Origin: SAR324 cluster bacterium
Lineage (GTDB): Bacteria > SAR324 > XYD2-FULL-50-16
NCBI GenBank assembly: GCA_028282885.1
Contig: JANQGX010000058.1
Coordinates: 68,078-132,077, forward strand
Direction of reading: 5' to 3'
Length of the DNA: 64,000 nucleotides
Shown: positions 3,220 through 54,775 of the stretch, in pieces
Position numbering within the stretch: the stretch's first letter is position 1
Layout: each line of letters starts with the position of its first letter
Notes under the pieces: model-generated
The model's input: only the letters and a program-made list of their open reading frames with translations
The model's database searches: none
Told to the model about the DNA's origin: nothing
Translations under genes and position numbers: made by a program

Positions 3220-5286
3220 ATGGCAAAAGAAGCTGCAGAAGATTTCGATCTGGACGGACTTGACGATTTGGATCTTGGAGATGATATCGATCTGGATTTG
3301 GATGATGATAGTTTAAATCTTGATGATGTTGATGTTGGATCATCCGATGATGACCAAGAGTCAGACGTCGATCTTGATGACAACCTTCTGGATGATCTGG
3401 ACCTGGGAGATACACTTTCGGAAGATGGTGCAATAGAGGCCGAAGCTGCCCTTTCTGTCGACGACGAATTGCAAATAGATGATATAGCCGACGTTGGAGA
3501 TGATCTCGAGGGGATGGACTTAAGCGATGACATAAACCTGGATGACTCTGCGGATCTTGGCGGCGATATGGACGATATTCCGGATATTGAGGGTGAAGTT
3601 GGCGATGCCGATCCGGATGCAGGGCTTGATGGCGATTTGGATCTGGATATGCCGGATGACGACGATATCGATCTTGACCTACCAGAAGGTGAAGATATTG
3701 ATATTGCCGGCGATGCAGATCTTGATTTAGCTGACGGGGAAATGACGGTCGATACGGACATGGACGGTGATTTGGATCTGGATCTTGGCACAGACGAGGA
3801 ACTTGCTGAAAGTGAGTTAGATTTGGGTGATACCGATATCGAGGGTGATTTGGATATGGACCTTGCTGACGATGGTGACCTGGAAACTGATCTTGATCTG
3901 GACATGCCTGAGGAGAGTGGTCTGGATGAGGAGACAGAGCTGGATCTTTCGGATGATCCCGGTCTGGAATCAGATCTGGATTTGGAAAGCAGTGATGATG
4001 AAGGAGGTGATCTCGATCTTGATGTCTCCCTGGATGGAGAATCAGATGACGATCTTGATCTGGATGTCTCCTTGGATGAAGAATCAGATGGCGATCTAGA
4101 TCTTGATGTCTCCCTGGATGAGGAAGACAGTGATGACCTTGCAGTACCTGATGACGAAATAGCTGAAGATGGGGCCGGAGATGAAATTCTGGAGTTATCT
4201 GATGACGATGAAGTTTTGGGCGAAGACGCTGTTGAAGCAGATGTTGGTTTGGATTTGGAGTTGTCTGAAGAGGAGGTAACCCTTGATGAAGATTTGGACA
4301 TGGATCTGTCGGACGAAGATGCTGTTTCCGAAGGCGATGATTTGATGATGGAAGAGGAAGAGGTGCCTGTCGAGCCTGAAGTTGAAAAGGAAGGTGAAGA
4401 TGCTCATCTGGATCTTTCATCATTAGAGGATGAGCTGGGGTTGGATGAATCAGAGATAGTAAAGGCGCCGGAAGTTGAAGAAATTAAAGATGTCGAATCA
4501 GATGATGAACTCGAAAGAGAACTGGCCAGCTTTTCCGAAAATGTAAATGGAGGTGCGGAAACAGAAGAAGACGAAGGCCTGGTGCTTGACGAGTCTATGG
4601 TTGTCCAGAAAATAGAACCGGAACTTGCCGGTGAAGAGCCAGAGGATGTCCCCAGTTTTATGAAAGACAGCGGAGAAGAGGAAAGCCTCATGGAAGAGGA
4701 AATCAGCGTAGAGGGCGATGATCTTGAATTTGATGCTGGCACAGATGAGGATCTGGATTTGACCGGGGAGGTGTTTGGCGACGATGACATCGACGAAAGC
4801 CAGATTCAAATTGAGGAAGTGGAAGATGACATGGGTGATGATGATGAAGACATGTTGAGTCTTCCGGAACTGGAAGATGACGAAGAGATTTTGGATCTTT
4901 CAGCCGAAGAAGACGATGAACCTGTTATGGTTGAAGTACATGACGATTTTGCAGATGACGCCCAGGAGGGGAGTTTCGAAGAAACAGATACATCTCAGAC
5001 CTTTGAAACAGTACCTGCCGCAACCATAGATAAACCTTCAGCCAAACCGCTGGTTGGACAGGAACTCTTATTAAATCTGAAACACACACTAACCGTAGAA
5101 ATCGGAAAATCGATCCTCAAAGGCCAGGAGATTACCGAGTTATCTTATGGCTCCGTTATTGAGTTGGATAAGAAAATCGGAGATCCGGTTGAAATCATCC
5201 TGGGTGACAAATCAATAGCCCGGGGAGAAGTGGTTCAGATCAATGAAGATCAGTTGGGTGTAAGAATCACAGGCATTAACTTCTAG
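3220..5286 (+). CDS. FliN/SpoA-domain protein with a very long polyacidic (D/E/L-rich), repeat-containing N-terminal region
   Basis: The last ~80 aa (LLLNLKHTLTVEIGKSILKGQEITELSYGSVIELDKKIGDPVEIILGDKSIARGEVVQINEDQLGVRITGI) match the FliN/SpoA C-ring domain. Residues 1 to ~600 are low-complexity DLDLD/EE repeats. There is a good RBS (AGGAG) upstream. Confidence 0.7.
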   Translation: MAKEAAEDFDLDGLDDLDLGDDIDLDLDDDSLNLDDVDVGSSDDDQESDVDLDDNLLDDLDLGDTLSEDGAIEAEAALSVDDELQIDDIADVGDDLEGMDLSDDINLDDSADLGGDMDDIPDIEGEVGDADPDAGLDGDLDLDMPDDDDIDLDLPEGEDIDIAGDADLDLADGEMTVDTDMDGDLDLDLGTDEELAESELDLGDTDIEGDLDMDLADDGDLETDLDLDMPEESGLDEETELDLSDDPGLESDLDLESSDDEGGDLDLDVSLDGESDDDLDLDVSLDEESDGDLDLDVSLDEEDSDDLAVPDDEIAEDGAGDEILELSDDDEVLGEDAVEADVGLDLELSEEEVTLDEDLDMDLSDEDAVSEGDDLMMEEEEVPVEPEVEKEGEDAHLDLSSLEDELGLDESEIVKAPEVEEIKDVESDDELERELASFSENVNGGAETEEDEGLVLDESMVVQKIEPELAGEEPEDVPSFMKDSGEEESLMEEEISVEGDDLEFDAGTDEDLDLTGEVFGDDDIDESQIQIEEVEDDMGDDDEDMLSLPELEDDEEILDLSAEEDDEPVMVEVHDDFADDAQEGSFEETDTSQTFETVPAATIDKPSAKPLVGQELLLNLKHTLTVEIGKSILKGQEITELSYGSVIELDKKIGDPVEIILGDKSIARGEVVQINEDQLGVRITGINF
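4006..4134 (+). repeat. Three tandem 42-bp in-frame repeats. Each unit encodes GDLDLDVSLD(G/E)ESD.
   Basis: Near-identical 42-nt units begin at 4006, 4048 and 4090. Confidence 0.8.
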
Positions 5287-5331: not shown

Positions 5332-6294
5332 ATGGCAGAAATCGTTGTCAAACCTTATGATATAACAAACGGTGAAAAGGTAACCTATGGCTATTACTCA
5401 GCACTGGAGGCCGTATTTCACCAGTTTACCGACAAACTTGAATCGTTTATGTATGACGAGTTCAAACTGGTTTTTGACTTCGAATTTGCCATTAAAACAG
5501 GAAATAAATTCCAGCAGGTGCTGGACGGTATTCATCAACCCTCATCGATCTTTATCTTGGGTATTTCGCCCCTGATGAGAGATTCCCTTCTCAAAGTCGA
5601 TAATCGCTATATCAATCTCATCTTAGCCAAGTCATCTCTGTTCAGAGAAGGTAAAGTGGTTGTTAACGACAGATATTCTTTAGCCGACACCAACAGCAAA
5701 GAGGTTAAAGAGCACATGGAGCAGATGTTAACATTGTTCCAGGGTAGTTGGAGCAAAATACAGGAGGTTGAATGTAGTTTGAAACGGTTGGTGTCCAATA
5801 AAATCAAAGCCAAAATCATGGATTCTACTGAATCCTGTGTTGAAGTCATTGTGACCATGAAGCAGAATAAATTTGCAGCAAACCTGGAGTTCTGCTTTTC
5901 AACGTATCAACTGGATCGGATTATTGAAAAAAGAGGATCCAGGGGACTGCTGGCCACTGGTGAAGAACAACCCTATGACAGTGGAATAAAGGAGTATCTC
6001 ACCAATCTGCTGTTAAATGAGTCCAGCTTTGAACTTAAGGGTGTACTTGGCACAATTGACCTCTCTTCAAAGGATCTGGTTGAGTCATTTGAACAGAAAA
6101 AGGTCATTCCCGTAAAAAACAGTGTGGGATCGCATGCGGTCGTGGAATTGGATAATACCCCAATTCTTGCTGCTGATATAGGCGAGACTTCCGGTTCGAT
6201 ATCCCTTCAGGTGAAGGATAGTTATTCTTCAATGGAAACAGAAAGTCAGAAGACTAAAAAACGGTTCTCACAGATCAGTTTTTCCAACAAATAG
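5332..6294 (+). CDS. FliM-like protein (CheC-like middle domain plus a C-terminal SpoA-like segment). It lacks the N-terminal CheY-P-binding peptide.
   Basis: Recalled similarity to E. coli FliM in three places. VKPYDITNGEK resembles IRPYDPNTQRR. MEQMLTLFQGSWSKIQEVE resembles INRMLKLALEGYSDAWKAINPLEVE. EVIVTMKQNKFAANLEFCFSTYQLDRII resembles the GEFNICLPFSMIEPL region. The C-terminal segment GTIDLSSKDLVESF...VVELDNTPIL resembles a SpoA domain. Confidence 0.5.
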   Translation: MAEIVVKPYDITNGEKVTYGYYSALEAVFHQFTDKLESFMYDEFKLVFDFEFAIKTGNKFQQVLDGIHQPSSIFILGISPLMRDSLLKVDNRYINLILAKSSLFREGKVVVNDRYSLADTNSKEVKEHMEQMLTLFQGSWSKIQEVECSLKRLVSNKIKAKIMDSTESCVEVIVTMKQNKFAANLEFCFSTYQLDRIIEKRGSRGLLATGEEQPYDSGIKEYLTNLLLNESSFELKGVLGTIDLSSKDLVESFEQKKVIPVKNSVGSHAVVELDNTPILAADIGETSGSISLQVKDSYSSMETESQKTKKRFSQISFSNK

Positions 6295-8060: not shown

Positions 8061-10220
8061 TCAGACAGTTCCTTCCAAAGCGCGATTTGCTTTTACTGAC
8101 TTGACAGTGTTGAGTTTGCTTAAAATTTTGTCCAGTTGTTCGGAACCATCGACTGTTATCGTGATGTCCTGAACACTTTTGTTGTCGACCAACTTCAGAT
8201 TATTCTCAAGCAGGGAGACTTTTGCTGAGGCCAGAACTTTCATGATCTGTAGATTGGTCTTTATCAGATTGTCGAATGTCAGTTTGATTCTGACAGGAAG
8301 TTTCTCCGCAGCCGATTTAATCCATTCAACCTCAACCAATCTTTCCGGATCGAAGCTCTTGGATCTGATGTTTTCACAATCAGCGAGATGCACCGAAACA
8401 CCTTGCCCTTGAGTGACAAGACCGACGATTTCGTCACCTTTAACCGGGTTACAGCAGTTCGCATATTTTACCATCATGTTCTCAATCCCCGCTATTCGGA
8501 CAGCTCTTTTTCTCTTGCTGTCATCCCTTGCAACAGCCGGCTTATGCGGTCGTTTCGAAATCTGCTGCCGTTCTGCCGGTGCAACGAACAACTGGTCAAG
8601 GTCTTCCGGATCAGCCTTACCGTAGCCAAGGTGGATAAAATAGCTGTTGATATCGGCATAACCGCCATCTGACAAGTAACGTTTTAATTCCGGAGATTTT
8701 AGAACATCGCGGGATCTTTTACCCAGTTTTGCTACTCTTTCATTGAACAGCTCCTTGCCCAGCACTTCAGCATGCTCCCTTTCTTCCTTTCTCAGAAAAG
8801 AGCGAATTTTGGCAAGAGCTCTTGAGGTCACTGCATAGTTAAGCCAATCCCTGGACGGATGCTGTTTTGATGAAGTTAACACCTCGACTTTGTCGCCATG
8901 TTTGAGCTGGGTTCTGATTGAAACGTTTCTCCCGTTTATTTTCGCACCGGTGCAGGTTTGTCCGATCTCTGTGTGTATTGCATAAGCAAAATCAATGACG
9001 CAAGCTCCTGATTGCAGCTTAACAATCTTGCCCTTTGGGGAGAAAACATAAACAAAATCAGAATAGAGCTCCCTGGTAAAGATATCCAGAGATTCCCTGG
9101 CATCGCTGGCAACATTAAGGCTGTTGATCAGATCCTGCAACCATGAGGTTCTCTCACCGGCTGTCGGAGCCTCGTTATTGTCTGCCTTGTAAGCCCAATG
9201 GGCGGCAACTCCCCTCTCTGCTATACTGTCCATTTCAAATGTCCTGATCTGGACGTCGAAACCGATACCGTCACTCGTATACACATCAATATGGAGTGAC
9301 TGATAATTATTCGGCTTGGGAAATGAGATATAGTCTTTGAAACTCTCGGTTACCGGGCGATAATGGCTGCTAATCAAGCCAAGCACCTTGTAGCATTCAT
9401 CTATATTGTTGACGATAATCCGAGTACCCAGCAGATCATGAAGGTTCTCGTAGTCGATATTGTTTCTGCGAGACTTCATGAAAATGGAATAATTATGTTT
9501 GATTCTGCCTTTGACCTTTCCTTTAATTCCGTTATGAAGAAGTAGGTTGGAAATCTCCTGGTAAAGCCGTTCCAGGGTCTTTGTATGCACATCCTTATTG
9601 TCAATGCAGAAGTCCTCTATCTCTTTATGTTCCTTCGGATGAGAATAGGAAAAACAGAGATCCTCCAGCTCTATTTTTATATGAGACAAGCCCAATCGAT
9701 CTGCGATGGGAGCGTATATCTGCAAGGTTTCCTTGGCGAGAGAGGTCATTCTCAGATTCTCCGGCCGGTTGCCTTGTCTCATTCTTACCAACCTGGCTGC
9801 AAGACAGACAAATATGATGCGGATGTCCTTTGATGAGGCAAATACCATCTGACGCATCTTTTCCGCAATCCGCTGCTTTTCATCCTGAATATCGGAAACC
9901 GCCCTGATATTGTGCATCCCGGCAATAATGCTGGAAGTCTCGCTCCCCAGCAAGTCCTCAATCTCATCTATGCTGATCTTACCTGCATCCAGAACTCCGT
10001 TCAGTAAACCCGAAACAATGCATTGAATGTCAAGTTTCAACTTGACGAGAATGCTGGCAATCTCAAGGGCGATCTGTAATTGATTTCGCGGGAAAAGCTT
10101 CAGATAAGACTGGGCTTTTGCAGCAAGAACATACGCTTTCTGGATCGGACTACAGTCGATTTTATTGTCCGTATACTCTTTAAACGTAGCAATAATCTCT
10201 TCGATTCGGATGACTTGCAT
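8061..10220 (-). CDS. relA: RelA/SpoT-homologue (p)ppGpp synthetase, RelA-type. The hydrolase HD motif is degenerate; the synthetase, TGS and ACT regions are intact.
   Basis: Synthetase motifs RIKHNYSIFMKS...YQSLH are present. The region where HD...ED is expected reads LNGVLDAG instead. Confidence 0.8.
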   Translation of the reverse strand: MQVIRIEEIIATFKEYTDNKIDCSPIQKAYVLAAKAQSYLKLFPRNQLQIALEIASILVKLKLDIQCIVSGLLNGVLDAGKISIDEIEDLLGSETSSIIAGMHNIRAVSDIQDEKQRIAEKMRQMVFASSKDIRIIFVCLAARLVRMRQGNRPENLRMTSLAKETLQIYAPIADRLGLSHIKIELEDLCFSYSHPKEHKEIEDFCIDNKDVHTKTLERLYQEISNLLLHNGIKGKVKGRIKHNYSIFMKSRRNNIDYENLHDLLGTRIIVNNIDECYKVLGLISSHYRPVTESFKDYISFPKPNNYQSLHIDVYTSDGIGFDVQIRTFEMDSIAERGVAAHWAYKADNNEAPTAGERTSWLQDLINSLNVASDARESLDIFTRELYSDFVYVFSPKGKIVKLQSGACVIDFAYAIHTEIGQTCTGAKINGRNVSIRTQLKHGDKVEVLTSSKQHPSRDWLNYAVTSRALAKIRSFLRKEEREHAEVLGKELFNERVAKLGKRSRDVLKSPELKRYLSDGGYADINSYFIHLGYGKADPEDLDQLFVAPAERQQISKRPHKPAVARDDSKRKRAVRIAGIENMMVKYANCCNPVKGDEIVGLVTQGQGVSVHLADCENIRSKSFDPERLVEVEWIKSAAEKLPVRIKLTFDNLIKTNLQIMKVLASAKVSLLENNLKLVDNKSVQDITITVDGSEQLDKILSKLNTVKSVKANRALEGTV

Positions 10221-11993: not shown

Positions 11994-13121
11994 TTAAATA
12001 TGGAGACAGTTCAGGTAGGTATTGAGGAGTATTTCTCTAACCTCTTTGATAACGATATTTCTGTCAAAGTACTTTTTATCAATGTCGATCAGGTGCCAAT
12101 ATAGTCCATCCGCTATGTATTTTATCATTCCCTTGGGTTCAGTCTCTTTGAAATCCGGATCTATAATCTTTTCAATACAACCGTTGTAAAGACTGATCTC
12201 TTTTTTCATCAGGTTTGCTATCTCTTCTCTTTCGATTTTGGGGAGTTCCAGATTAAAATCGAGTTGAAAGGTTTTAAGACAGCTTTTCCAGACCACAAAT
12301 ACGAACTCTTTGTAGCTGTAATTCTGATTAAATCTCTTGATGAGATCGGCTTTCTCGTCCAGTTTTTTTAGTCTTGCTTCCTGTTCGCGTTTGAGTCTGG
12401 CACTGTTTCTGGTCGTCGCAAATCGGACGAGATCTGCAGCTTCTTTATGATTGTCTACCGCGACACCGTATTTCACATAAACTGGCTTGTTGATGTATCC
12501 TTGGTAGAGGGTTTCAAAGATTTCCTTTGAAGCACCCATTTCCATGATCAGATTCTGGAAGGAGGTGTTTAATGCGATGCCTAAGGAAGTCTGATTATGT
12601 CCTCTTTTTCGCATATCTTCCGCTTTCGATATTAACAGGTCCAGTTTATCGAAAAACCCTTCCGGGTCATGACTTCTCCGAACTGATATGCTTTGGAGAT
12701 AATCCGTGATTGTCTTTTTAATTTCATCATTCGAGAGGATGAGGAAAATACTGTGATTCTTGATGGTGCCCCTGGCCCTAACTCCTCCCTTCTCTGTCTC
12801 ATTTTCGTAGAAGCAGATGTATTTCAAAGATTTGCCATAGTTCGATACTGCAATCTGGTCGACCTTGAGTTTAACCTGCCTGAAACTGAGATTTTTCTTT
12901 ACCGGAACTTTTTCTGCATACGAGAATCCTGTTTCACTAATATCGCAGACGGCAAAGTTCTTACCCTTTACGGAGGCTTTTAACCCGGCCATTCTGTTCG
13001 TGATCAGGTCAAGCCTGTCGGCCCTACCGCTATACTTTGGATGTCCCATGGACAGCTTTTTAGCGGTTTTCTCCGGATAGAGTGTTTCAAATTTTCGATC
13101 TTGTCGTCCGTTGTTATTCAT
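11994..13121 (-). CDS. Hypothetical protein with a degenerate PilZ-like N-terminal motif (R..R ... DISETG)
   Basis: RADRLDL followed about 25 aa later by CDISETGFSY, reminiscent of the PilZ RxxxR / DxSxxG motifs but not canonical. The rest is unrecognised. Confidence 0.35.
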   Translation of the reverse strand: MNNNGRQDRKFETLYPEKTAKKLSMGHPKYSGRADRLDLITNRMAGLKASVKGKNFAVCDISETGFSYAEKVPVKKNLSFRQVKLKVDQIAVSNYGKSLKYICFYENETEKGGVRARGTIKNHSIFLILSNDEIKKTITDYLQSISVRRSHDPEGFFDKLDLLISKAEDMRKRGHNQTSLGIALNTSFQNLIMEMGASKEIFETLYQGYINKPVYVKYGVAVDNHKEAADLVRFATTRNSARLKREQEARLKKLDEKADLIKRFNQNYSYKEFVFVVWKSCLKTFQLDFNLELPKIEREEIANLMKKEISLYNGCIEKIIDPDFKETEPKGMIKYIADGLYWHLIDIDKKYFDRNIVIKEVREILLNTYLNCLHI

Positions 13122-13149
13122 TCTCTTCAGACAAAAAATTATAAGAGTA

Positions 13150-15726
13150 TTATGAAATATCAGATGGGGATAACAGTTGCAGTAGATTTCTTATGGATTC
13201 CTGCCTCATATCGGCATATTCGGCACTTCCCCCGGATCCTGAATCACTTTGAGCTCGTTGATCTGTAAGCAGTTTTAACGTTTCCCGGTGTTTTTTAATC
13301 TCCTGTACCAATTGCATGCTGTTGCTGGCAAATACATCCAGGATTTCCAGAAAAAGCTTATTGGCAACTTCGGTGCTCTCATGATTGTCCGGATGTAGAA
13401 TGGGGAGAAGGTTGAGATACGGTTTCCCGCTGGTAATGGGATTTTGTTTCTGCCAGCGCTCCTTGATGAATTCCGAAACAAGCGGGGTGAGCTGTTCAGC
13501 CAGGATATCAAGGACCGGACGTGGTTCATCTCCCGGTAGCTTGGACACTACTTTATTTAAAACAGGGATCTGATCGGTCAGTTCAAACAGTAGGTTTCTC
13601 CACCTGGTATAGGCCTGGTTTCCTCGCTGTTCGATTGACATTTCCGGGAAATCCTTGGTTGCCAAACGTAAGAAGAAGTTATAAATCCGCTTGGACAGTT
13701 TGTTGGAAACAAGAATTTCGTTCGGATCCAGTTTCAAACCGATGGTACTGCCAAGCCATCCCACGATTCTCTGGTAGTCCGTTTTTGCAAGCTTCAAGGC
13801 TTTCTGCTCGAAAATCGCTATTTTTTCCGAGCGAAGTATTCCGTTTTTTATCTCAGTCCATTCGTCCACTGCAGCATCTCTTTTTTCAAGCAAATCAAGA
13901 AGATAACTGATATGGTTGTCAATAAACCACTGCATCAACGGAAGGTGCTGTTCTACAAACACAGTATTGTCAGGGTTGGGAAATCTCTCCCAGGGAAGTT
14001 TGTTTCTTGAGACGACCATGACGAGAGAGTCTTCTTCAGTCAGCAATGAATATCTGTCTTCCTCTTCAATTCCCGGATCCTCGATTTTAGAATTCCAGTA
14101 TTCACCACCGATAGGCGAACAGGCTTTGATGGAAAGAAGCCTGTTATCCTGTTGTTTCAAGGCAATATCTCCGGTTAACGGAAACCAGATCTGGTCTCTC
14201 AATTCACTCTCCTGAATTGTATCACCTTTTTCAACGCCACAGAGATAAAAGAGATTGTTTAAGACCTGTTTGGAGAGATATTCCGTCTGAAAATTGCTTG
14301 CCTTGATTATACCAAAAAACGCCTGGGTCATTTTCTCACGCGTGAACTGGGTTCGATGCGCTTTAATCATGTTGTTATAATTTGGAAACGTGTTCTCCGA
14401 AAACTTGATGACACCAAGCGTCTGCCCGTCAATAGAAGGTGATGAATCTCGATAATGATGCACCCCACGAATAATCGTTGAGATATGACTCTTGAGTAGG
14501 CCGGGATCAATCTGTGACTTTTTATCGGTTTCGCCCAGGGATATGTTTCTGGATTTCACTTCATCCAAAAATTTCTGCATTTTAACAACTGACGAGTTAA
14601 AATTGTTTTCACAATCTGCGGCCACCAACGCACATTTCTGCCCGACTTGTGCCAGTAAACGGCGGGGATTACTGACTTTATACATCTTATAGAAGAATTC
14701 CAAATAGAGCGGCAGATTGAACTCATTTGATCTCTCCCCTTTCCCAAAAAAAGAAGATGGCGGGTTTTTTTTATTAATTCCTTTTTTTAAGAGCCTGGAT
14801 TCAAACTTTTTCTGCAATTGATTTTGCAACCCGATCAATCGCATTCGATAAATGTTGGGATTAAACAGTTCAAGATCAAGGGGAGGAATCGGTTTTTTAT
14901 CATCCGGAAGGCTTTTTGTGACTCTTGCCGATATCTCGGTCAGCGTGTTTCGCCATTCCAGTTTCATCCTGATAATATGCTTTTGATCCGTGGCGTTTTT
15001 ATATTTGTGCTCGAAATAACGTCTTAGATAGGAGTGCAACGATTTTGCGTTGATTTGGACCTGTCTTGGCCAGTCCATTCCAATTTTGGATACAACATAG
15101 CTTTGGGCTATCTTCCAGGCATCAGCATCCCAATTGGGGTCGATTCTGTTGTCGAGTTGTTTGGCGTAGATCTGTTGATTGATCGCCTGAATTGTGTTGC
15201 TGGCCTGCTCCCACAGTGATTTCTGGAGATAGATGAATTCGAACAGTCTCTCCTGTACTGTTTGAAACACATTTTCATAAACTCTTTTCTCCTGATTGAA
15301 GCTCTCATCGGAAATCGTGCTGTCCTTAAAGTCCCTGATGAAACTTCCCATAGGAATTTTGAAGACCAGAGCGGGCTGATCGCTTGAAATTCGGATTGTT
15401 GCAGCCCTTTCCGAGTTCTCGGCGATGATTCCTTTGTCACCTACCAGAGTGGGTGATTGCATTTGTACGACGACCTGATCTCCAACCAATACATCAATGG
15501 TACCGCTACAGAGAAGGAAAAAATCCCTTCCGGATTCTCCCTGAATTATGATATCCGAGCCTTTCTCAAAGAAACCGAACTCTAATTGGTCTTTGAGTTC
15601 CTGCCCCAAGGTTTCAATGCAACCACGGGTTAACGGATAGCTGTTGAGCAAGTCAATGGACGTCTGGACGGCTCTGGTATCCGTGCCTTTTAACAAGTGG
15701 TAAAGATTGGTTTCCCAATTCGACAT
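13150..15726 (-). CDS. Large (858 aa) cyclic-nucleotide-binding-domain protein. The C-terminal ~700 aa are unassigned.
   Basis: N-terminal cNMP-binding beta-barrel: FFEKGSDIIIQGESGRDFFLLCSG...GDKGIIAENSERAATIR (phosphate-binding cassette). Confidence 0.7.
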   Translation of the reverse strand: MSNWETNLYHLLKGTDTRAVQTSIDLLNSYPLTRGCIETLGQELKDQLEFGFFEKGSDIIIQGESGRDFFLLCSGTIDVLVGDQVVVQMQSPTLVGDKGIIAENSERAATIRISSDQPALVFKIPMGSFIRDFKDSTISDESFNQEKRVYENVFQTVQERLFEFIYLQKSLWEQASNTIQAINQQIYAKQLDNRIDPNWDADAWKIAQSYVVSKIGMDWPRQVQINAKSLHSYLRRYFEHKYKNATDQKHIIRMKLEWRNTLTEISARVTKSLPDDKKPIPPLDLELFNPNIYRMRLIGLQNQLQKKFESRLLKKGINKKNPPSSFFGKGERSNEFNLPLYLEFFYKMYKVSNPRRLLAQVGQKCALVAADCENNFNSSVVKMQKFLDEVKSRNISLGETDKKSQIDPGLLKSHISTIIRGVHHYRDSSPSIDGQTLGVIKFSENTFPNYNNMIKAHRTQFTREKMTQAFFGIIKASNFQTEYLSKQVLNNLFYLCGVEKGDTIQESELRDQIWFPLTGDIALKQQDNRLLSIKACSPIGGEYWNSKIEDPGIEEEDRYSLLTEEDSLVMVVSRNKLPWERFPNPDNTVFVEQHLPLMQWFIDNHISYLLDLLEKRDAAVDEWTEIKNGILRSEKIAIFEQKALKLAKTDYQRIVGWLGSTIGLKLDPNEILVSNKLSKRIYNFFLRLATKDFPEMSIEQRGNQAYTRWRNLLFELTDQIPVLNKVVSKLPGDEPRPVLDILAEQLTPLVSEFIKERWQKQNPITSGKPYLNLLPILHPDNHESTEVANKLFLEILDVFASNSMQLVQEIKKHRETLKLLTDQRAQSDSGSGGSAEYADMRQESIRNLLQLLSPSDIS

Positions 15727-15913
15727 AAGTCGGTTTCTCCTGAAGTAACAGAAATTCGACTGAAAGAGTTAGCATGCCCGAAGCGCAGGTCGGGTTGTCT
15801 TGGTTAAAATCGAATACTGATTAACTATTCCTTTTATATTCTGAATATCCCAAAGAAGGTGAATTATCAACAATGATGCTTGTAACAGTTTGAAGAGAAA
15901 AGATTTCAATGTT

Positions 15914-18535
15914 CTACGACGAAACAGCAAACTCGCGATAGGTGTTCCAGCCTTCTTCTTCTGAAGATTTAACAGCGATCAGCATTGAATTGGGTCTGAT
16001 TTTATAATCCATATCCGGTGCGACTATCACCCGATTGGGGACAAGATCCTTGACCTTGATTAGCTCTTCAACCTGACCTTTGATATTGGACTGTATTTGG
16101 GCCTGATGTATTCTTTCAGACTTTCTGGCATGTACATTTCCAGTCTCTTCCAACAGACCGACTACCATCTCTTCCGGTTTGTAGTAACCACGTAGCAGTT
16201 GTTTGAAACTGCCGTTTATGTAATCATTTGATATTTCTGAAATTCGAAGCGAGGTCTCATCGAAATTGATCAGTTTTTTAATAACCTGGGCAACACCAAG
16301 TCCATGTGAACCGTTTGATAACATTATACGAGTGAACTCGTCTTCAAGATAAATCTCTTCGACGTTTGCCTGTTCAAGTGACTCTTTGTATCTTTTGTCA
16401 AGAATTTCAGCAATCTTATAAGCTTTGCGATTAAGAGTTCCCACCATCATAGATGCCAGAACGGTCTGTGAATCTATCTCTTCGAAGGTTCTGCCCGATT
16501 CTGTCTCGGCCAGAATAATGACTTTGGTGGCTTGATAGATACCCGCCTTTTTTAATATATCACGATCGACAATATTTCCCGAGTGAAAGTCAATATCAAC
16601 ATTCTTGCCGAAACGATTCATAAAGTCGTCAATCCGTTGCTGGGGAAGGTCGGCGACAATTGAAATCTTGTTCCAATTGGTGTTGTGATTGGAATACTCC
16701 TTGATAATAAAATCTACCATTTCAGGAAGTTGGGGCTTCCAGCCACATATCATCAGCACCTGTTTCTTTTTTTCTGATCTTGGCTTGACAACGGTTTTAG
16801 CCCTGTCCAGGTCGCTGCGCAGTTTGGCCAGGCTTTTACAAGTTCTCTGGGAAGCATCGATATCTTCCTTCACACCTGAGCCTTCTCGGACGCCAGGGAT
16901 TTTGTTGAGTTCAGTGACAATCACATCGTCAATACCCAGGATTTTAAAGCTGAACTTCTTCCCTTCATATCCGACACCATTGATTCTTTTTCTATATGAA
17001 TAGAGATCCATTCCCTCTTTTCGAAGAAGGTCGAATAACGTATCCCAGTCTGGCGCTTTATCAAAGAACGTATTGACCTTTTCCTTAACCAGAGATTTGA
17101 GACTCTGTTTTTTTTCGAATAATTTCATCAGCTTGGCTAGCTGATTTGGTGGATACCCAAGTGTTTCAAAGGGATATTTTCTATTCCCGTAGATTGCCCC
17201 TTGAATCGTATTGGCATACGGATAGATTTCAACACCAACTGTTTCAAGTTTCTCGCAAACAGCTTTCCAACTATCTGTCGTCTCAACCACCGCATCCAGA
17301 TAATGTCTAAGCATCTGTTCCGGTGTTTTGGCTGAAATATCCTCCATCACGACTGTTTCCGAAAGGCTTTCACTGTCATTCAACTCTCCACCCGGCACAT
17401 TGAGAACGATCATGGAGCTACTTTCCTTGATAATATAATTAGGAGGCGGGTGAAAGACAGGGACATTGCTTCTGGTGTTCTTAAGGTCCATTAGTTCCTG
17501 AATCGCCTTTTTAATCGATACCGATTTCTGTGCCAGGTTCATTTTCTCTTGCTTTCGTTTTCTTAGATTACCAGTGTTTTCAAGCAAGCCGATGACAAGC
17601 GGTCTATCGGAACTGGATTTTAGCTCCTTGTATGTCCTCCCATTGTAATAACTATCAATGCTTTCGATACGAAGAAGCCCTTTATCCATTGAAAAAAAAG
17701 CGGAGAATACATTATTCAAGCCGGACATCAAGGCAATATTGCATAAAAGGGCCCGGGCGCTGTGTCTGTTAAGGATGATCTCTTCTACATCAACATGTTG
17801 AAGATACATGCTGAACTTGGGCTGAACAATCTCTGCAATGGTATGAATCTGAGAATTGACTCTTTTTACAGCTATGGCGGCCAGGATGGACCTGAAATCC
17901 ACTTCCTCCGCGGTTTTTCCGGATAGTTCGTCGGTAATAATGAGTACTTTGCCGGCGCTGTGGGCACAAGCGTTGAGGAGAACCTCCCGGTTGGTGTAGT
18001 CACCATGAAAATAGCATACTCCTTTTAAGAGAGGATCCTGTCTGAGATCATTGACCATTTCCGCCTTGGCGCTGTTTACCAATACCAATTGATTGGATAC
18101 CAGACGATGCAGCACCAGAATATCTTTCAACAACTCTTTCATCCCTTGCCGCCAGCCAAGCACCAGGAAATGATCTTCTTTTTTTCTGATGGGTACCAGG
18201 CCAAACACCCTCCTTCTGTTTCTTTCAACCAACCAACTGGTGATATTACCGGTTAACACGCCGGTGTAGACAATACCGATAAACATGATAATCACGGCAG
18301 CGGATTTACCGAAACTAGAGACTGGTGATAGATCTCCATAGCCAACTGTGGTAATGGTAACAATGGAAAACCAGAATGAGTTGAAGAGGTCTTTTATACC
18401 CGACCCGTCTTCAGTTGATTCCAAAAACAGCATCAAGACGGCGGCGATAATAAGGAAGCTGAAGAACCCAATTATTGTCTGGGCCGCCCCACTATTTCTC
18501 AGCCATGAAGACCATTTTTTAAGTTTTCTGATCAT
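15914..18535 (-). CDS. Potassium channel (2TM plus pore, TVGYGD filter) with two tandem RCK/TrkA-N domains in one polypeptide
   Basis: TITTVGYGD selectivity filter flanked by two TM helices. RCK1 begins HFLVLGWRQGM. RCK2 begins VLMICGWKPQ. A linker of ~300 aa lies between them. Confidence 0.85.
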   Translation of the reverse strand: MIRKLKKWSSWLRNSGAAQTIIGFFSFLIIAAVLMLFLESTEDGSGIKDLFNSFWFSIVTITTVGYGDLSPVSSFGKSAAVIIMFIGIVYTGVLTGNITSWLVERNRRRVFGLVPIRKKEDHFLVLGWRQGMKELLKDILVLHRLVSNQLVLVNSAKAEMVNDLRQDPLLKGVCYFHGDYTNREVLLNACAHSAGKVLIITDELSGKTAEEVDFRSILAAIAVKRVNSQIHTIAEIVQPKFSMYLQHVDVEEIILNRHSARALLCNIALMSGLNNVFSAFFSMDKGLLRIESIDSYYNGRTYKELKSSSDRPLVIGLLENTGNLRKRKQEKMNLAQKSVSIKKAIQELMDLKNTRSNVPVFHPPPNYIIKESSSMIVLNVPGGELNDSESLSETVVMEDISAKTPEQMLRHYLDAVVETTDSWKAVCEKLETVGVEIYPYANTIQGAIYGNRKYPFETLGYPPNQLAKLMKLFEKKQSLKSLVKEKVNTFFDKAPDWDTLFDLLRKEGMDLYSYRKRINGVGYEGKKFSFKILGIDDVIVTELNKIPGVREGSGVKEDIDASQRTCKSLAKLRSDLDRAKTVVKPRSEKKKQVLMICGWKPQLPEMVDFIIKEYSNHNTNWNKISIVADLPQQRIDDFMNRFGKNVDIDFHSGNIVDRDILKKAGIYQATKVIILAETESGRTFEEIDSQTVLASMMVGTLNRKAYKIAEILDKRYKESLEQANVEEIYLEDEFTRIMLSNGSHGLGVAQVIKKLINFDETSLRISEISNDYINGSFKQLLRGYYKPEEMVVGLLEETGNVHARKSERIHQAQIQSNIKGQVEELIKVKDLVPNRVIVAPDMDYKIRPNSMLIAVKSSEEEGWNTYREFAVSS

Positions 18536-18644
18536 GTCTGATTTGTTTTGTTAACTGATATCTGGAAGTCTCATGCTACTATACAGTTTTTGTTCAAGTG
18601 TTTTCAACCAGTCATAGTTATTTTATGCTTCGAGAATGAATAGC

Positions 18645-19298
18645 TCAGAATCCAAACCCTAATGATATGAGAAGCATAATATTATCATGCTCGTATCTGT
18701 CGTCTAAACTCTCGGAGGTATCCGTTTTTCCTTTTACATACAACAATCTGGTATCAATCACCAGGAAACGTTCCCCCCCATATATACCAAAAACAACCGC
18801 ACTGACAGATGATTTCACCAACTCCTGAACGGTGGTTTTTTCAAGGCTGCTTTCACGTGCGGTGTACTGGTTCAAGGTCAGCTCCAAATCCAGGTTATTG
18901 TAACCGAATCCAACATAGGCAGTGAGAAAATCAAATATCTTCGAAGAAGAAGGAGCAAATGATTTGTAATCTATTGTTTTTATGACCATGGGCAGCATCA
19001 AATCACCCTGAAATGTGTAACTATTTACCGATTCATTTGAACCTTCCACTGCATCGAGAAAGGTCAAATCTTCAATCAGCGTGTATCTAACACCCCAAAT
19101 TCCCTTGTACAATAAGGTTAAGTCGTATCCCGGCCCTTTCTGCTCAAGCAGGTCATAATTTAACATGACAGAAGTATGTAAGGGACTTTGAGCGAATGCA
19201 GTCTTGGCTAACAAAATTAAAGCCAGGCATAGCATTGAGAAGTAAAAAGTTTGATATGTATTCTTTACAAACGGCTTACCAATCGATTTTGTCTTCAT
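18645..19298 (-). CDS. Small outer-membrane beta-barrel protein (signal peptide; C-terminal ...GFGF)
   Basis: Signal peptide MKTKSIGKPF...AKTAFAQ. Alternating amphipathic strands. Aromatic C-terminus ending in F. Confidence 0.55.
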   Translation of the reverse strand: MKTKSIGKPFVKNTYQTFYFSMLCLALILLAKTAFAQSPLHTSVMLNYDLLEQKGPGYDLTLLYKGIWGVRYTLIEDLTFLDAVEGSNESVNSYTFQGDLMLPMVIKTIDYKSFAPSSSKIFDFLTAYVGFGYNNLDLELTLNQYTARESSLEKTTVQELVKSSVSAVVFGIYGGERFLVIDTRLLYVKGKTDTSESLDDRYEHDNIMLLISLGFGF

Positions 19299-19392
19299 GT
19301 TGTTATCAGTCATAAAAGTAACTTGCCTGAAAACAGTTTCAAATTGTCCTGAATTATCTTTTTGGGGATGATACACGGAGTGTCGTTGAAGA

Positions 19393-20526
19393 CTATCCTT
19401 GTGGCACAATTTCAAATTGAGCACCTGGTTTAGATATGATGATTCCTTTTATCTCCAGATTGACAAGAGCTGAAAGCAATTCCGGCACCGGTAGATCAGC
19501 TTTTCTGATAAGCTGATCTTTTTGACAACAACCCTGTCCAAGCAACTCAAGTACCTTTTCTTCGGTTTTGCTCAAATAAATTTCTGTTTTTTGATTTTCA
19601 ACATCCTCGCCACGAAAGCTCAATTGTTCGTTGTCCAGATTAAATTCTTCAAGAACATCATCGATATCCATCACAAGTTTTGCCTGACCTTTTTGAATAA
19701 GCCGATTGGTACCCTTGTGGAATTGCGAATCCGCCGGGCCCGGGAGAGCAAATAGTTCGCGGTTTTGTTCCAGGGCGTAGCCTGCCGTGATGGAGGCGCC
19801 GCTTCTGATACCAGCTTCAACTATCACTACACCCTTGGACAGACCACTGATGATTCGATTTCTCAAAGGAAAGTTTTTGGCAATCGGTTTTGACGTCATT
19901 GGAAACTCTGTTACCAGAGCACCATTTTGAATCACTTTTGAGGCTAGCTTTTTGTTTCTCAGCGGATATATTTCCGAAAGTCCATTTGCCAAAACACCGA
20001 TGGTTTGCAGATTGTTTTCAAGCGCGGCTTCATGAGCCGATGTGTCAATACCTAATGCCAAACCACTGATAACAATCGTATTTGGCAGCTTTCGAGCCAA
20101 ATCTTTGATTAAACGCTTACAGATGCTCTTTCCCGAATAAGACGCTTTTCTGGAACCAACAAAGGCCAAGCAGAATTTTCTTTCTAATTGCAGTTCTCCT
20201 TGCACATATAGAACCGGTGGAGGATTGTAGATTTCCCTGAGTAAATCCGGATATTCAGTTTGGGTAAAGTCCAGAACCTTCACTCCGTTTCTCTCAATTT
20301 GATCTAATTCCAGTTTGAAATCGGATGACTCAAGAGCGCCGGGAATCTGTTCGGCAAGCTTATGTTCACCTCCCAGGATCTCGGTTAAGCTCTTCAACGA
20401 AGAATTGAATATGTCGTTGACATTAGAAAACGAGTCTACCAACCTTTGAATTCTTACCGGCCCCAATCCGGGGATCAGCCATAAAGCTAAAATTGCCAAG
20501 GTTGTGTCAGTCGATTTCATCATCAA
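19393..20526 (-). CDS. dprA: DNA-processing protein DprA (Smf)
   Basis: DprA Rossmann-like core (ISGLALGIDTSAHEAAL...). Full length is 377 aa. Confidence 0.9.
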   Translation of the reverse strand: MMMKSTDTTLAILALWLIPGLGPVRIQRLVDSFSNVNDIFNSSLKSLTEILGGEHKLAEQIPGALESSDFKLELDQIERNGVKVLDFTQTEYPDLLREIYNPPPVLYVQGELQLERKFCLAFVGSRKASYSGKSICKRLIKDLARKLPNTIVISGLALGIDTSAHEAALENNLQTIGVLANGLSEIYPLRNKKLASKVIQNGALVTEFPMTSKPIAKNFPLRNRIISGLSKGVVIVEAGIRSGASITAGYALEQNRELFALPGPADSQFHKGTNRLIQKGQAKLVMDIDDVLEEFNLDNEQLSFRGEDVENQKTEIYLSKTEEKVLELLGQGCCQKDQLIRKADLPVPELLSALVNLEIKGIIISKPGAQFEIVPQG

Positions 20527-30413: not shown

Positions 30414-31754
30414 TCATCTTGAAGAATCAGCTTCCCGATCTTGACTTAATGTAACCGGTAGTCTGTTTTGTATCTCTAACTCCTTTTTCTCGGGTGGTAG
30501 ATCAATAATAGCACGGAAAATCCTGGCAACTTCCTTATTCAACTCCCTGGACAGGGCTTCGAACTTTGTATTGTTATCCCACATGGACTTGAAGAGTTTG
30601 CCGATTTTCTCCTTTCGGGTCTCGGGCCTGTCTTCATCCTCGATACGTTTTTTGATTTCCTTAAGAATCCCCTGTTCCTTGATGGATGTGTATATGAGCT
30701 TGAAATCTTCTATTATCCGAGAGTATCTCTCCCCATATTCACTATCGATAACCTGTTTGGCTAAAAAATAATCCCGGACAAGATTCAGGACAAGGGCATC
30801 GAGTTTATAATTGTCCAGGTTGATTTTTCCCAGACTTAACATTCCCACTCCCGGGATAGCTATATACAGCTCTTTGCTACCGGCTGCTTCCAGGAGTTTT
30901 ATCAGATCGTGTTCAAATTCTTCGTCTGATTCACTATAGAGTTTCTCCAGTATATCGGGTGACAAGGGTATGTGGTCAGCGTTGTTGTCCCAATCATCCA
31001 GAGTTTGAATGAGAGCAGCGCTCACTTTGAACAGATGAGGGAAATTAATTACCTTGTAGCCGTGAATGGCGGAAATAGAGTTAATTGCATTGGAGATTCT
31101 GATGATGGTTCTTGCGATATTAATCAGGCTGACCAATATGCCGGTACCGGGTATATTCGAGGCCACAATCAAACCGAGGACGATATTGAAGGTTTTATCG
31201 AACGAATCAATCAGCCTTTTATAGCGATTGCTTTTATGGGGATAGAGTGTCTCAATCAGGAGGCTTCTCTCTCCTGGGGACAACTTTCGAATATCATGCA
31301 GATTATGGATTTCCTTGTTCAGTGTCAAAGCGGCTTTATCCACCACCCATTTTTCATAGTCAATGCTTTTGGAGAGCTCAATGCCGCTTTTAATAAACTC
31401 AAATACTCTTTCCCGGACCCACTCTTCCATCTCTTTCAGCTTGCTTTTGGTCAGTTTTGAGAAATCCTGAGTGATCCTGCCAAACCTGTCCAAAACCTGG
31501 GATGATTTCAGAATTTGCCTGATTTTGCCGGAGGGTATTCCGGGGATTTTCGTGTTACCGGCTTTTTGACCAAACTGTTTCACCTTTTCCAGACTTTTGC
31601 TGAGTGTCCTGTCAGCTTTTTGGATGGTTTCTATAGCCGAATGACCTTCAAACGGCTCGATAACTCGATTTTTAGCAAAGCGCTGCAGACTCTCCAACTC
31701 ATCCCCGGAAAGCTGTTCAACGAATTCCTTATAACTTAAATTCTTTTTTGACAT
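30414..31754 (-). CDS. Hypothetical 446-aa protein (one central hydrophobic segment), encoded immediately upstream of rpoN
   Basis: Intact ORF with coding-like composition. No recognisable motif. Confidence 0.5.
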   Translation of the reverse strand: MSKKNLSYKEFVEQLSGDELESLQRFAKNRVIEPFEGHSAIETIQKADRTLSKSLEKVKQFGQKAGNTKIPGIPSGKIRQILKSSQVLDRFGRITQDFSKLTKSKLKEMEEWVRERVFEFIKSGIELSKSIDYEKWVVDKAALTLNKEIHNLHDIRKLSPGERSLLIETLYPHKSNRYKRLIDSFDKTFNIVLGLIVASNIPGTGILVSLINIARTIIRISNAINSISAIHGYKVINFPHLFKVSAALIQTLDDWDNNADHIPLSPDILEKLYSESDEEFEHDLIKLLEAAGSKELYIAIPGVGMLSLGKINLDNYKLDALVLNLVRDYFLAKQVIDSEYGERYSRIIEDFKLIYTSIKEQGILKEIKKRIEDEDRPETRKEKIGKLFKSMWDNNTKFEALSRELNKEVARIFRAIIDLPPEKKELEIQNRLPVTLSQDREADSSR

Positions 31755-45956: not shown

Positions 45957-46716
45957 AAATAAAAACAGGATCAAAGGGTTTGTCATCTGCCTTGCACTCT
46001 TATCTATCCAAATCGGATTGCCCGGCGTTTCTCGATCTGAAGCATCTGATCTCACCATAAGACAAAAAGCGCTCTCATATCCCGAAATTCTTTACAAATC
46101 CGGAGAGTATTACCGCTCAATGTCTGAAATAATGAGATTAAAGTTTGAGCTCGGATATGAAAAGGATGAGCTTCAATTGGACATTCTTTATCTCAAAAAT
46201 GCATACAAATTAAAGGAGTACAGAAAAATTCTGGATTCGGCCCCCGGATTAATGGAAAATCCCGGGGTGAAAAACAGCCCTGAAAAAAGGCATCAAGTCG
46301 GCAAGATTTTAACCGCAACCCTGGTAAATCTGAAAGACTATTCAAAAGCGGCCGATACCTGGGACGCTTGTTGCAGTTCCTCGGGCAGGGAGTTCGTCAA
46401 ACCTGACGAAATTCCGGGAATGGTTGATCCGGACCGGGCCCGATGGTATTCGACTTTCTTACCAGGCTCCGGTCTTTTACTTTCCGGGGAATATGGTAAA
46501 GCGCTGGTTTCTTTCTTGTTGAATAGCATAACCCTCTATGGAATTTACCACTATGGAACCCACCAACAGATGGGCACAGCCGGTCTGTTGCTGTTTTTTG
46601 AAATAGGTTGGTATGCAGGCGGTCGAAACGCCTCGGCAGAAGCTGCCGAGGACCATAATCGCGCCCTGGTATCGGAATATTATCAATCCAACTATTACCC
46701 GGAATTGGGTAACTAA
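45931..46716 (+). CDS. Hypothetical secreted/membrane protein (signal peptide; C-terminal hydrophobic segments). Overlaps the preceding gene by 26 nt.
   Basis: Signal-peptide-like N-terminus and 2-3 C-terminal hydrophobic stretches. Confidence 0.45.
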   Translation: MSKPPVSIKNKNRIKGFVICLALLSIQIGLPGVSRSEASDLTIRQKALSYPEILYKSGEYYRSMSEIMRLKFELGYEKDELQLDILYLKNAYKLKEYRKILDSAPGLMENPGVKNSPEKRHQVGKILTATLVNLKDYSKAADTWDACCSSSGREFVKPDEIPGMVDPDRARWYSTFLPGSGLLLSGEYGKALVSFLLNSITLYGIYHYGTHQQMGTAGLLLFFEIGWYAGGRNASAEAAEDHNRALVSEYYQSNYYPELGN

Positions 46717-54106: not shown

Positions 54107-54137
54107 TGCAGTGAAAGGTTGTCATATGAGAAAAGAA

Positions 54138-54223
54138 AGTGATCCGTAACGCATCTTCCAATACTTAGTGCTGCTTCCTTTCGGACCTGACACGATTCGC
54201 ACCTTCCAATCGTACGGATCACC
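54138..54223 (-). ncRNA. ffs: Signal recognition particle RNA (4.5S, small type)
   Basis: Contains GTCAGGTCCGAAAGGAAGCAGC, matching the SRP RNA domain IV consensus. It is closed by the long helix GGTGATCCGTACG / CGTTACGGATCAC. It lies immediately upstream of dnaX, as in many bacteria. Confidence 0.75.
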
Positions 54224-54229
54224 GCATTG

Positions 54230-54319
54230 TGGCGGAGAGACGGGGATTCGAACCCCGGAAACAGTTTCCCATTTACACGCTTTCCAGGCGTGCTCCTTCA
54301 TCCACTCGGACACCTCTCC
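54230..54319 (-). tRNA. tRNA-Ser (anticodon GGA)
   Basis: Hand-folded cloverleaf with long variable arm. Anticodon loop CUGGAAA. GGTTCGAATCC T-loop. Encoded CCA. Confidence 0.85.
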
Positions 54320-54378
54320 GCGTTTTCTTTGCTCCCTGGCACAGGATCTATCGATGATCCCCTCCTTCCAGGAACATG

Positions 54379-54455
54379 TGGTACACCCGAAGGGACTTGA
54401 ACCCCTGACCCCCTGTTCCGCAAACAGATGCTCTATCCAGCTGAGCTACGGGTGC
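54379..54455 (-). tRNA. tRNA-Arg (anticodon GCG as folded)
   Basis: 77 nt. D-loop AGCTGGATA. Anticodon stem TCTGT/ACAGG with loop TTGCGGA. GGTTCAAGTCC T-loop. Encoded CCA. Confidence 0.7.
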
Positions 54456-54489
54456 ATCATTCCGTTGGTGTCATCTTCCTGCAGCCTTA

Positions 54490-54579
54490 TGGCGGAGAGA
54501 CGGGGATTCGAACCCCGGGTACCCTTGCGAGTACAACAGATTAGCAATCTGCCCCATTCGGCCTCTCTGGCATCTCTCC
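54490..54579 (-). tRNA. tRNA-Ser (anticodon GCT)
   Basis: Anticodon stem-loop CAGATTGCTAATCTG. Long variable arm. GGTTCGAATCC. Encoded CCA. Confidence 0.85.
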
Positions 54580-54689
54580 GTTTTCCGCACTTCCGCTAAT
54601 ATCGCATATCGGAAGTGTGCAGTGGTTTGCTTTGAGCTTGTGGAACTATTTCAGCAGGAAGTACGACAGCATTTGATGCAATGCTATTC

Positions 54690-54775
54690 TGGAAGAGGGA
54701 GGGGGATTCGAACCCCCGATGCCGAAGCATAACGGTTTTCAAGACCGCCGGATTCAACCACTCTCCCATCCCTCC
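54690..54775 (-). tRNA. tRNA-Ser (anticodon TGA)
   Basis: Anticodon stem-loop GCGGTCTTGAAAACCGT. Long variable arm (GTTATGCTTCGGCATC). GGTTCGAATCC. Confidence 0.8.

Follow-up and report, generated by a model that had tools for sequence, protein, structure and literature searches.

The locus described here lies in a 64,000-nucleotide stretch of DNA from a SAR324 cluster bacterium (assembly GCA_028282885.1, contig JANQGX010000058.1, positions 68,078-132,077 of the forward strand; G+C ~43-46%), which as a whole is referred to below as the window. It consists of three consecutive minus-strand open reading frames (ORFs) with ATG starts, which encode a K+ channel with two RCK domains in one chain, a protein with an N-terminal cyclic-nucleotide-binding (CNB) domain, and a smaller protein that resembles PilZ receptors. 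A first reading of the sequence (the original prediction) had placed these genes with gaps of 187 bp between the channel and the second gene and 28 bp between the second and the third, and their coordinates, strands and gaps all proved to be as it gave them. The reading of the locus that we favour, although with slightly less than even confidence, is that of a K+ channel gated by RCK domains whose cyclic-nucleotide-sensing partner is encoded by a gene of its own, a reading for which the basis beyond the domain assignments is genomic context. The comparisons cover 45 loci fetched through the three proteins and 80 returned by a metagenome scan, which were mapped by tblastn and ORF clustering and carry our own numbers (L045 and the like).

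15914-18535, minus strand: tandem-RCK K+ channel, 873 aa, assigned by Pfam, PDB sequence searches and alignments
13150-15726, minus strand: 858-aa protein with a CNB domain and an orphan module, described from Pfam, an AlphaFold2 (AF2) model, Foldseek and profile search
11994-13121, minus strand: 375-aa protein, with a PilZ-like barrel at the N-terminus and a further domain at the C-terminus, described from alignment, AF2, Foldseek and Pfam

Within the channel gene, four parts can be distinguished:

18227-18463, minus strand: two-transmembrane pore with a TVGYGD filter, residues 25-103 (Ion_trans_2 E 1.4e-16; KcsA E 4e-13; MthK E 7e-12)
17366-18181, minus strand: RCK1, residues ~119-390 (Slo-like_RCK and TrkA_N; 34% identity to the RCK of the L045 channel, which has only one)
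16901-17326, minus strand: linker between RCK1 and RCK2, residues ~404-545, with two copies of a ~70-aa domain of the pattern W...L...G...Y.Y....G....K..F..LG, seen in the family alignment
15956-16768, minus strand: RCK2, residues ~590-860 (second Slo-like_RCK stretch; 30% identity to the L045 RCK; CASTOR 6o6j E 7e-4)

The original prediction of a KcsA/MthK-type pore followed by two RCK domains in one chain was borne out. The selectivity filter reads TITTVGYGD, with the T-V-G-Y-G signature of K+ filters in a two-transmembrane pore, and the solved structures closest to the pore and RCK1 in a PDB sequence search were KcsA and MthK; Pfam returned, besides Ion_trans_2 and TrkA_N, two separate Slo-like_RCK stretches (E 6.5e-20). 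Residues 11-378 and 562-856 each align over ~300 residues to the lone RCK of the L045 channel, and since both cytoplasmic halves align to one and the same domain of that relative, the tandem is real and represents a duplication of a complete RCK, giving the two RCKs per chain that define tandem-RCK channels. RCK1 has LGWRQG at the GxGxxG position and a C-terminal motif GLLENTGNxxxRK, and RCK2 has the corresponding motifs ICGWKPQ and GLLEETGNxxARK; GW in place of GxGxxG is what we take, from MthK and CASTOR, to be the pattern of a cation-binding rather than a dinucleotide-binding RCK. When the RCK region alone was compared with PDB sequences, the three matches were to CASTOR (two sequences) and the RCK of E. 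coli Kch, while RCK1 alone weakly matched DMI1 and CASTOR, and the Pfam family Castor_Poll_mid matches 11 of the 15 members of the channel family.

The linker domains are the unusual part of this channel. Their resemblance to TraI_middle, a relaxase domain, is weak and below the Pfam cut-off (E 5.6e-5, 23.7 bits) and is found in 4 of the 15 family members, and a comparison of the linker domains with PDB sequences found no relative. Channel relatives of ~790-800 aa have a single copy of the domain, and the two-copy form coincides with the clade in which the gene for the 858-aa protein or its homologue (the 860-aa family, below) is adjacent to the channel gene and co-oriented with it.

Dual-RCK channels are already known in bacteria, GsuK of Geobacter sulfurreducens being a dual-RCK, multi-ligand-gated K+ channel (eLife 2012, PMC3510474), and the architecture is therefore uncommon rather than new; to this extent the claim that a BK/GsuK-like arrangement is rare in bacteria holds. 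Both GsuK and the window channel combine a bacterial two-transmembrane K+ pore with two RCKs per polypeptide, so that a tetramer would form a gating ring of eight RCKs. However, GsuK was not among the three PDB matches to the RCK region of the window channel, which is devoid of GxGxxG and has an insert of ~150 aa between the RCKs, made up of the two TraI_middle-like domains. The best sequence matches to the RCK region come from the CASTOR/POLLUX/DMI1 channels of the plant nuclear envelope, which also form tandem-RCK rings (PDB 6o6j, 7vm8); common to both are the "LGW" start, the acidic "ADE...D.RS" and "I(S/A)EI" segments and, in most of the family, Castor_Poll_mid. This similarity is nevertheless very weak (best E 7e-4), and the plant channels are eukaryotic, have a different transmembrane part and lack a separately encoded CNB partner. 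Finally, the Ca2+-gated channels MthK and BK (Slo1) resemble the window channel in the pore and RCK1 (MthK, E ~7e-12), in the Slo-like_RCK family and, in the case of BK, in the tandem arrangement, but MthK has one RCK per chain together with a soluble copy, and BK carries a voltage sensor.

The 858-aa protein encoded by the second gene includes the following elements:

15322-15669, minus strand: N-terminal CNB domain, residues ~20-135 (Pfam 27.3 bits; Foldseek matches to PKG, PKA and SthK; conserved cassette)
15394-15441, minus strand: phosphate-binding cassette G96-D-K-G...R107-A-A-T110, from an alignment of 29 sequences
14008-14247, minus strand: second beta-rich region, residues 494-573, which lacks a phosphate-binding cassette; a second long helix comes after it (AF2 secondary structure)

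The match to cNMP_binding (PF00027) covers residues 53-130 (E 3.7e-6) and at 27.3 bits falls 0.2 bits under the cut-off of 27.5 bits; the N-terminal cassette that had been predicted was nonetheless borne out by its fold and its conservation. In the AF2 model (pLDDT, the model's own confidence measure, 82 overall and mostly 82-92 over residues 20-135, with one block at 73), residues 49-124 form a beta roll that Foldseek superposes on the CNB domains of PKG, PKA, SthK and EAG/ELK channels (TM-score 0.6-0.73, target-normalised; root-mean-square deviation 2.8-3.9 A), and the roll has the flanking helices of a CNB domain. The cassette agrees with the pattern G-[ED]-x...R-[AST]-A-[TS]: G96, D/E97, K98, R107 and A109 are present in all 29 aligned sequences and T110 in 28 (T or S in all 29), and its "RAAT" is what we take to be a PKA-like form. 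Because this conservation extends to relatives of 28% identity, binding of a cyclic nucleotide is likely, and the 858-aa protein, as judged from its sequence, probably binds cAMP or cGMP.

Beyond the CNB domain, the AF2 model consists of a 53-residue helix, a helical bundle, the second beta-rich region, a 55-residue helix and further helices. Structure prediction, which had been proposed as a way of finding hidden domains, thus confirmed the CNB fold and brought out the second beta-rich region; the 50 Foldseek matches listed from the PDB all contain CNB domains, and none of them extends to the other ~720 residues. The ~700 aa that had gone unrecognised in the original prediction remained so: when a profile built from residues 137-858 was run against 1.84 billion representative proteins, it gave 50 matches, nearly all of the same ~860-aa architecture or fragments of it, with no homologue outside its own family, and in the ~860-aa relatives the match begins at about residue 136. 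In sequence terms, this part of the protein is an orphan module of ~720 aa without detectable relatives or independent existence. In the model, residues 494-573 look like a degenerate CNB domain that lacks the cassette, which hints that the protein is a duplicated unit of CNB domain and helices whose second sensor has decayed. Aligned with hhalign, the two halves of the protein gave E 0.0046 over 244 columns with a probability of just 7.6%, and the internal duplication is for this reason treated as a hint only.

Genomes with this protein have two or three paralogues of the 860-aa family, with 28-36% mutual identity. One paralogue group (~36% identity) has a conserved neighbourhood of its own (L002/L030, 6800-13776; also L003, L021, L023, L024 and L031), with a 215-aa unknown protein and a 133-aa CesT/YbjN-like chaperone upstream, the chaperone being found next to the paralogue in seven loci, and 345-aa and ~653-aa unknown proteins downstream. 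The 345-aa gene in L002 was considered as a homologue of the 375-aa gene of the window and rejected, as no homology was found.

Independent support for a tie between channel and CNB protein comes from a separate clade of channels. Most of the 80 loci from the metagenome scan hold generic K+ channels that matched through the filter motif, and the informative ones are the nine in which the match reaches the RCK region (L046-L054). Five of these have downstream sequence, and four of the five (L046, L047, L050 and L053, but not L054) carry a CNB-type gene there, as opposed to none of the 76 other K+ channel loci from the scan. In L045, which holds the most distant channel homologue (single RCK, 34% identity), and in three of these loci, a single-RCK channel gene from the same subfamily is followed by a gene for a CNB protein of ~165 aa:

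L045, 7001-10289: channel and CNB gene overlapping by 11 bp
L047, 444-2140: channel and CNB gene overlapping by 4 bp
L050, 2151-3906: channel and CNB gene separated by 25 bp
L053, 30-1687: channel and CNB gene separated by 8 bp

The channels of L047, L050 and L053 belong to the subfamily at 26-33% identity. The small CNB proteins have 163-168 aa and end in a conserved helix, RLRKA(N/D)EDxxxL; cNMP_binding was confirmed by Pfam in those of L047, L050 and L053 (E 4e-13 to 4e-20), which are 32-48% identical to the 167-aa protein of L045, where the same assignment is a precomputed annotation. The L050 type comes from metagenome-assembled genomes (MAGs) of Desulfobacteria, Thermodesulfobacteriota, Deltaproteobacteria and unclassified bacteria, and in several assemblies its channel and CNB protein have consecutive GenBank accessions. 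Channels of this subfamily are thus accompanied by a CNB gene downstream in two phyla, and by very different CNB proteins, one of ~860 aa in SAR324 and one of ~165 aa in Desulfobacteria, and we regard this recurrence, seen at the level of gene order, as the strongest support for the central idea of the original prediction, a link between the channel and cyclic nucleotides. A limited literature search found no paper describing an RCK-channel/CNB gene pairing, which does not establish the pairing as undescribed.

RCK channels sense ions and adenine or pyridine nucleotides, and, to our knowledge, the known cyclic-nucleotide-regulated channels have their sensor fused to the pore. MloK1, SthK and the CNG and HCN channels thus resemble the present system in combining a K+-type pore with a CNB domain, and the CNB domain of the 858-aa protein can be superposed on those of SthK and EAG/ELK; in those channels, however, the domain is joined to the pore by a C-linker, whereas here it resides on a separate protein of 858 or ~165 aa and the pore carries RCKs. 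By Pfam, the window channel chain contains no CNB domain, which sets it apart from the fused channel families.

If the favoured reading of an RCK-gated channel with a CNB partner is right, the system could work as follows. The channel tetramer would form a ring of eight RCK domains like those of BK, GsuK and CASTOR, and this ring would gate the pore upon binding a ligand of its own, for which a cation is more probable than a dinucleotide. The CNB protein would bind cAMP or cGMP and could relay the signal through its long helix and the orphan helical modules to the cytoplasmic ring of the channel or to its linker domains, making K+ flux sensitive to cyclic nucleotides in trans. The 375-aa gene would be a clade-specific passenger and not a conserved member of this two-part module. 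A more specific version, which we consider possible but rather unlikely, is that the CNB proteins encoded beside channels of this subfamily act in trans as auxiliary subunits, docking on the RCK ring and conferring a cAMP or cGMP response without a fused CNB domain; with the same reserve, it would extend both to the ~165-aa form of Desulfobacteria and to the 860-aa form of SAR324 with its orphan duplicated helical module.

Control of an RCK-gated channel by a separate CNB protein would, if true, be a third design that joins two well-studied gating systems, and, if the CNB proteins are indeed trans-acting subunits, it would represent a previously undescribed way to build a cyclic-nucleotide-regulated K+ channel. 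The small pair of Desulfobacteria, with a channel of ~400 aa and a CNB protein of ~165 aa, would be tractable for structural work and electrophysiology. The analysis also defines two orphan families, the 860-aa CNB protein and the 375-aa PilZ-like protein, both confined, where sources are named, to SAR324, Lambdaproteobacteria and unclassified delta- or proteobacterial MAGs (homologue names include SAR324 cluster bacterium, Deltaproteobacteria bacterium and Candidatus Lambdaproteobacteria). It is possible that both families take part in the second-messenger signalling of a lineage that is abundant in the deep ocean but uncultured.

The most serious alternative is that the three genes are neighbours by descent only, that is, an ordinary RCK-gated K+ channel, a cyclic-nucleotide receptor with another target and an unrelated 375-aa orphan. 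We consider this explanation doubtful, albeit a real contender, and if it holds, the locus amounts to an ordinary K+ channel beside two hypothetical proteins. Several observations weigh on its side and against a channel-CNB module in SAR324. First, orthologues of the 858-aa gene (at least 39% identity) are all found at this locus, and channel and 860-aa gene are adjacent and co-oriented in every locus of the clade of at least 47% identity that has both (L004-L008, L012, L014, L015, L017, L019 and L022), but they lie in a backbone of ~20 kb, BamD-TPR-DprA-outer-membrane protein (OMP)-channel-860aa-[variable]-NifU-gmk-RelA-radical SAM-FliM, which is collinear across loci at 50-67% identity, so that the adjacency could be explained by shared ancestry of a housekeeping region alone. 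Second, in L013 (MAG PL23b_bin.72) the channel is reduced to a 106-aa RCK2 remnant (9342-9662), flanked by the OMP gene and an 860-aa gene that is intact, an apparent natural deletion, and in L020 the channel is absent and the 860-aa gene intact; the channel has been lost twice while its neighbour was retained, and an obligate tie between the two is not supported. Third, the deeper tandem-RCK channels of L043 and L044 are flanked by the OMP gene and RecO and have no CNB gene beside them, and 860-aa paralogues occur at other loci that have neither a channel nor a 375-aa gene. Fourth, a BLAST comparison of the CNB domain of the 858-aa protein with the ~165-aa channel-linked CNB proteins gave no specific similarity.

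The loci L018 and L046 bear on both sides of this question. They have a different backbone, MgtE-PGDH-OMP-channel ... RecO, in which the 860-aa gene lies within ~2 kb of the channel but converges on it, and co-transcription is therefore not required for the association; at the same time, the presence of an 860-aa gene beside the channel in two distinct backbones is counted as support for a channel-CNB module and against descent alone. The operons of single-RCK channels and small CNB genes in four further loci make a chance pairing of a CNB gene with this channel subfamily unlikely. In L018 (12585-14486) and L046 (9420-11306), the 860-aa gene is followed by a gene for a ~630-aa protein that has no Pfam domain and is unrelated to the 375-aa protein; a relationship of the L018 gene to the 653-aa gene of L002 was also considered and rejected, the two being unrelated.

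The signals for transcription concern both this explanation and the suggestion that the three genes form an operon. Two sites are relevant:

18578-18607, minus strand: promoter-like site TTGAAA-18-TATAGT, 10 of 12 consensus positions, in the 109-bp gap upstream of the channel (consensus match only)
15842-15870, minus strand: TTGATA-N17-TATTCA block in the 187-bp gap, from an intergenic alignment of the window, L008, L014 and L013

In consensus scans, promoter-like and terminator-like sites were no more numerous in the region than in shuffled sequence, and such scans consequently neither prove nor refute an operon; between the three genes, the scan found no terminator-like hairpin on the coding strand. 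The block at 15842-15870, which the scan did not flag, has the general form TTGA(T/A)A-N17-TAT(T/G)(C/A)A, is shared with L008, L014 and partly L013, and in L013 was retained despite the deletion of the channel. The 858-aa gene probably also has its own promoter, for which this block is a candidate that counts in favour of neighbourhood by descent only, and the 375-aa gene is predicted to be co-transcribed with the 858-aa gene across the 28-bp gap. As to the proposal that the genes look like an operon, and to the accompanying question of internal promoters or terminators, co-orientation, short gaps and the lack of a terminator-like site on the coding strand are consistent with it, and, given the conserved promoter-like block, a single unit of three genes is not assured. 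The same gap contains, in the 5' leader of the 858-aa gene, a hairpin CCCGA-N8-TCGGG on the coding strand (15776-15795) with a CCTGCGCTTC core that is partly common to L014 and L013; no run of T follows it, and it has no Rfam match.

The 375-aa protein was the ground on which a third messenger, c-di-GMP, had tentatively been brought in.

12687-13025, minus strand: PilZ-like region, residues 33-145, from the family alignment, AF2 and Foldseek

The degenerate PilZ-like motif seen in the original prediction is present and invariant, but every search with a PilZ profile failed. R33, R36, D60, S62 and G65 are conserved in 12 of 12 family sequences, down to 29% identity, and D60-I-S62-E-T-G65 agrees with the [DN]xSxxG motif of PilZ domains; it begins 24 residues after R36, a spacing that presumably lies within the PilZ range. 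The arginine motif is R33-x-x-R36, one residue shorter than the RxxxR of PilZ. In the AF2 model (pLDDT 82), residues 1-34 are disordered and are followed by a small beta barrel with an inserted helix and then by a helix, ahead of a C-terminal domain of ~230 aa to which no function is assigned. Neither Pfam nor NCBIfam gave a match to PilZ (PF07238) at E<=1 in the 375-aa protein, the Pfam profile matched none of the 12 family members at E<=10, and a profile of the family had no match among PDB sequences at E<=10; canonical PilZ proteins, from which a comparison profile was to be built, were sought by regex throughout the fetched loci, and there were none. Foldseek gave nothing significant for the model, and the weak matches other than RNA polymerase include the PilZ structure 4xrn (probability 0.91, E 0.15, TM-score 0.45-0.48), with MotI and PlzD weaker. 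Compared with the PilZ receptors PA4608, YcgR, MotI/DgrA and PlzD, the protein is similar in the invariant DxSxxG, in the position of the arginine motif upstream on a disordered N-terminus, in the order of barrel and helix, and in having 4xrn, 5vx6 and 2rde among its fold matches (E 0.15 to 1.5); it differs in its RxxR, the helix inserted in the barrel, the failure of hidden Markov model searches and the unassigned C-terminal domain. The protein is filed as PilZ-like, without membership being established, and the modelled barrel is possibly a divergent, nucleotide-binding one.

A conserved three-gene operon, in which cAMP or cGMP sensed by the 858-aa protein and c-di-GMP sensed by a PilZ-type 375-aa protein would act together on K+ flux, is improbable. 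It would fit the co-orientation and short gaps, the invariant RxxR...DxSxxG, the PilZ structures among the weak fold matches, and the 375-aa gene that follows the 860-aa gene directly in the window and L013 and after TANGO2 in L008/L015 and L012/L014. However, a TANGO2 gene separates the two genes in those four loci, the third slot is instead a CDF transporter in L006, L007, L017, L019 and L022 and the ~630-aa gene in L018 and L046, and more distant 375-aa homologues sit after topA with neither a channel nor a CNB gene nearby; the shortened arginine motif and the profile failures described above also argue against a PilZ receptor. Beyond close relatives, the order of the trio is not conserved, as the third slot varies, channel and CNB gene converge or occur singly, and paralogues lie elsewhere. 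The synteny comparison that had been called for thus upheld the gene order only in part, with channel and CNB gene adjacent in one SAR324 clade, a variable third slot, two losses of the channel and deeper channels without a CNB gene. Overall, the observation made in the original prediction is confirmed and its interpretation partly supported: a link between channel and cyclic nucleotides gains from the four single-RCK loci, and a pathway of three messengers is unsupported.

It is likewise very unlikely that the 858-aa protein is no ligand sensor and its CNB-like domain structural or degenerate, for although the Pfam score is sub-threshold, cNMP_binding is given in the precomputed annotation of only 6 of 45 homologues (with the family marked "weak" or "faint" where seen in contig look-ups) and the second beta domain is clearly degenerate, the cassette residues G96, D/E97, R107, A109 and T110 are kept in 28-29 of 29 sequences and the fold superposes on ligand-bound CNB domains at ~3 A.

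The surroundings of the locus are those of a chromosome and not of a mobile element, with housekeeping genes on both sides: CDP-alcohol phosphatidyltransferase, BamD/YfiO, a TPR protein and DprA on one, and NifU-rhodanese, guanylate kinase, RelA/SpoT, a B12 radical-SAM enzyme and FliM on the other. The gene directly upstream of the channel is the following:

18645-19424, minus strand: 259-aa ORF whose product has an N-terminus resembling a signal peptide, a body rich in beta structure and GFGF at the C-terminus

It has no Pfam match and, from its sequence features, looks like a small outer-membrane barrel, the OMP of the backbones above. In each of the 15 loci that have a tandem-RCK channel gene or what remains of one, whether or not an 860-aa gene is also there, this gene lies ahead of the channel, and L020, which lacks the channel, has it too.

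A scan of the whole window with Rfam found no riboswitch or other RNA element within 11-19 kb, its only matches being tRNAs and the signal recognition particle (SRP) RNA near 54 kb, where four tRNA genes (three Ser, one Arg) are clustered beside the small SRP RNA (54132-54775, minus strand). Two further ORFs, at 30414-31754 (minus strand, 446 aa) and 45931-46716 (plus strand, 261 aa), did not match any Pfam family at E<=1e-4. Finally, a 688-aa protein encoded at 3220-5286 (plus strand), just before the FliM homologue at 5332-6294 (plus strand), is recognisable only by a C-terminal FliN domain, and its long N-terminal region, which matches nothing we recognise, is unusual for FliN.

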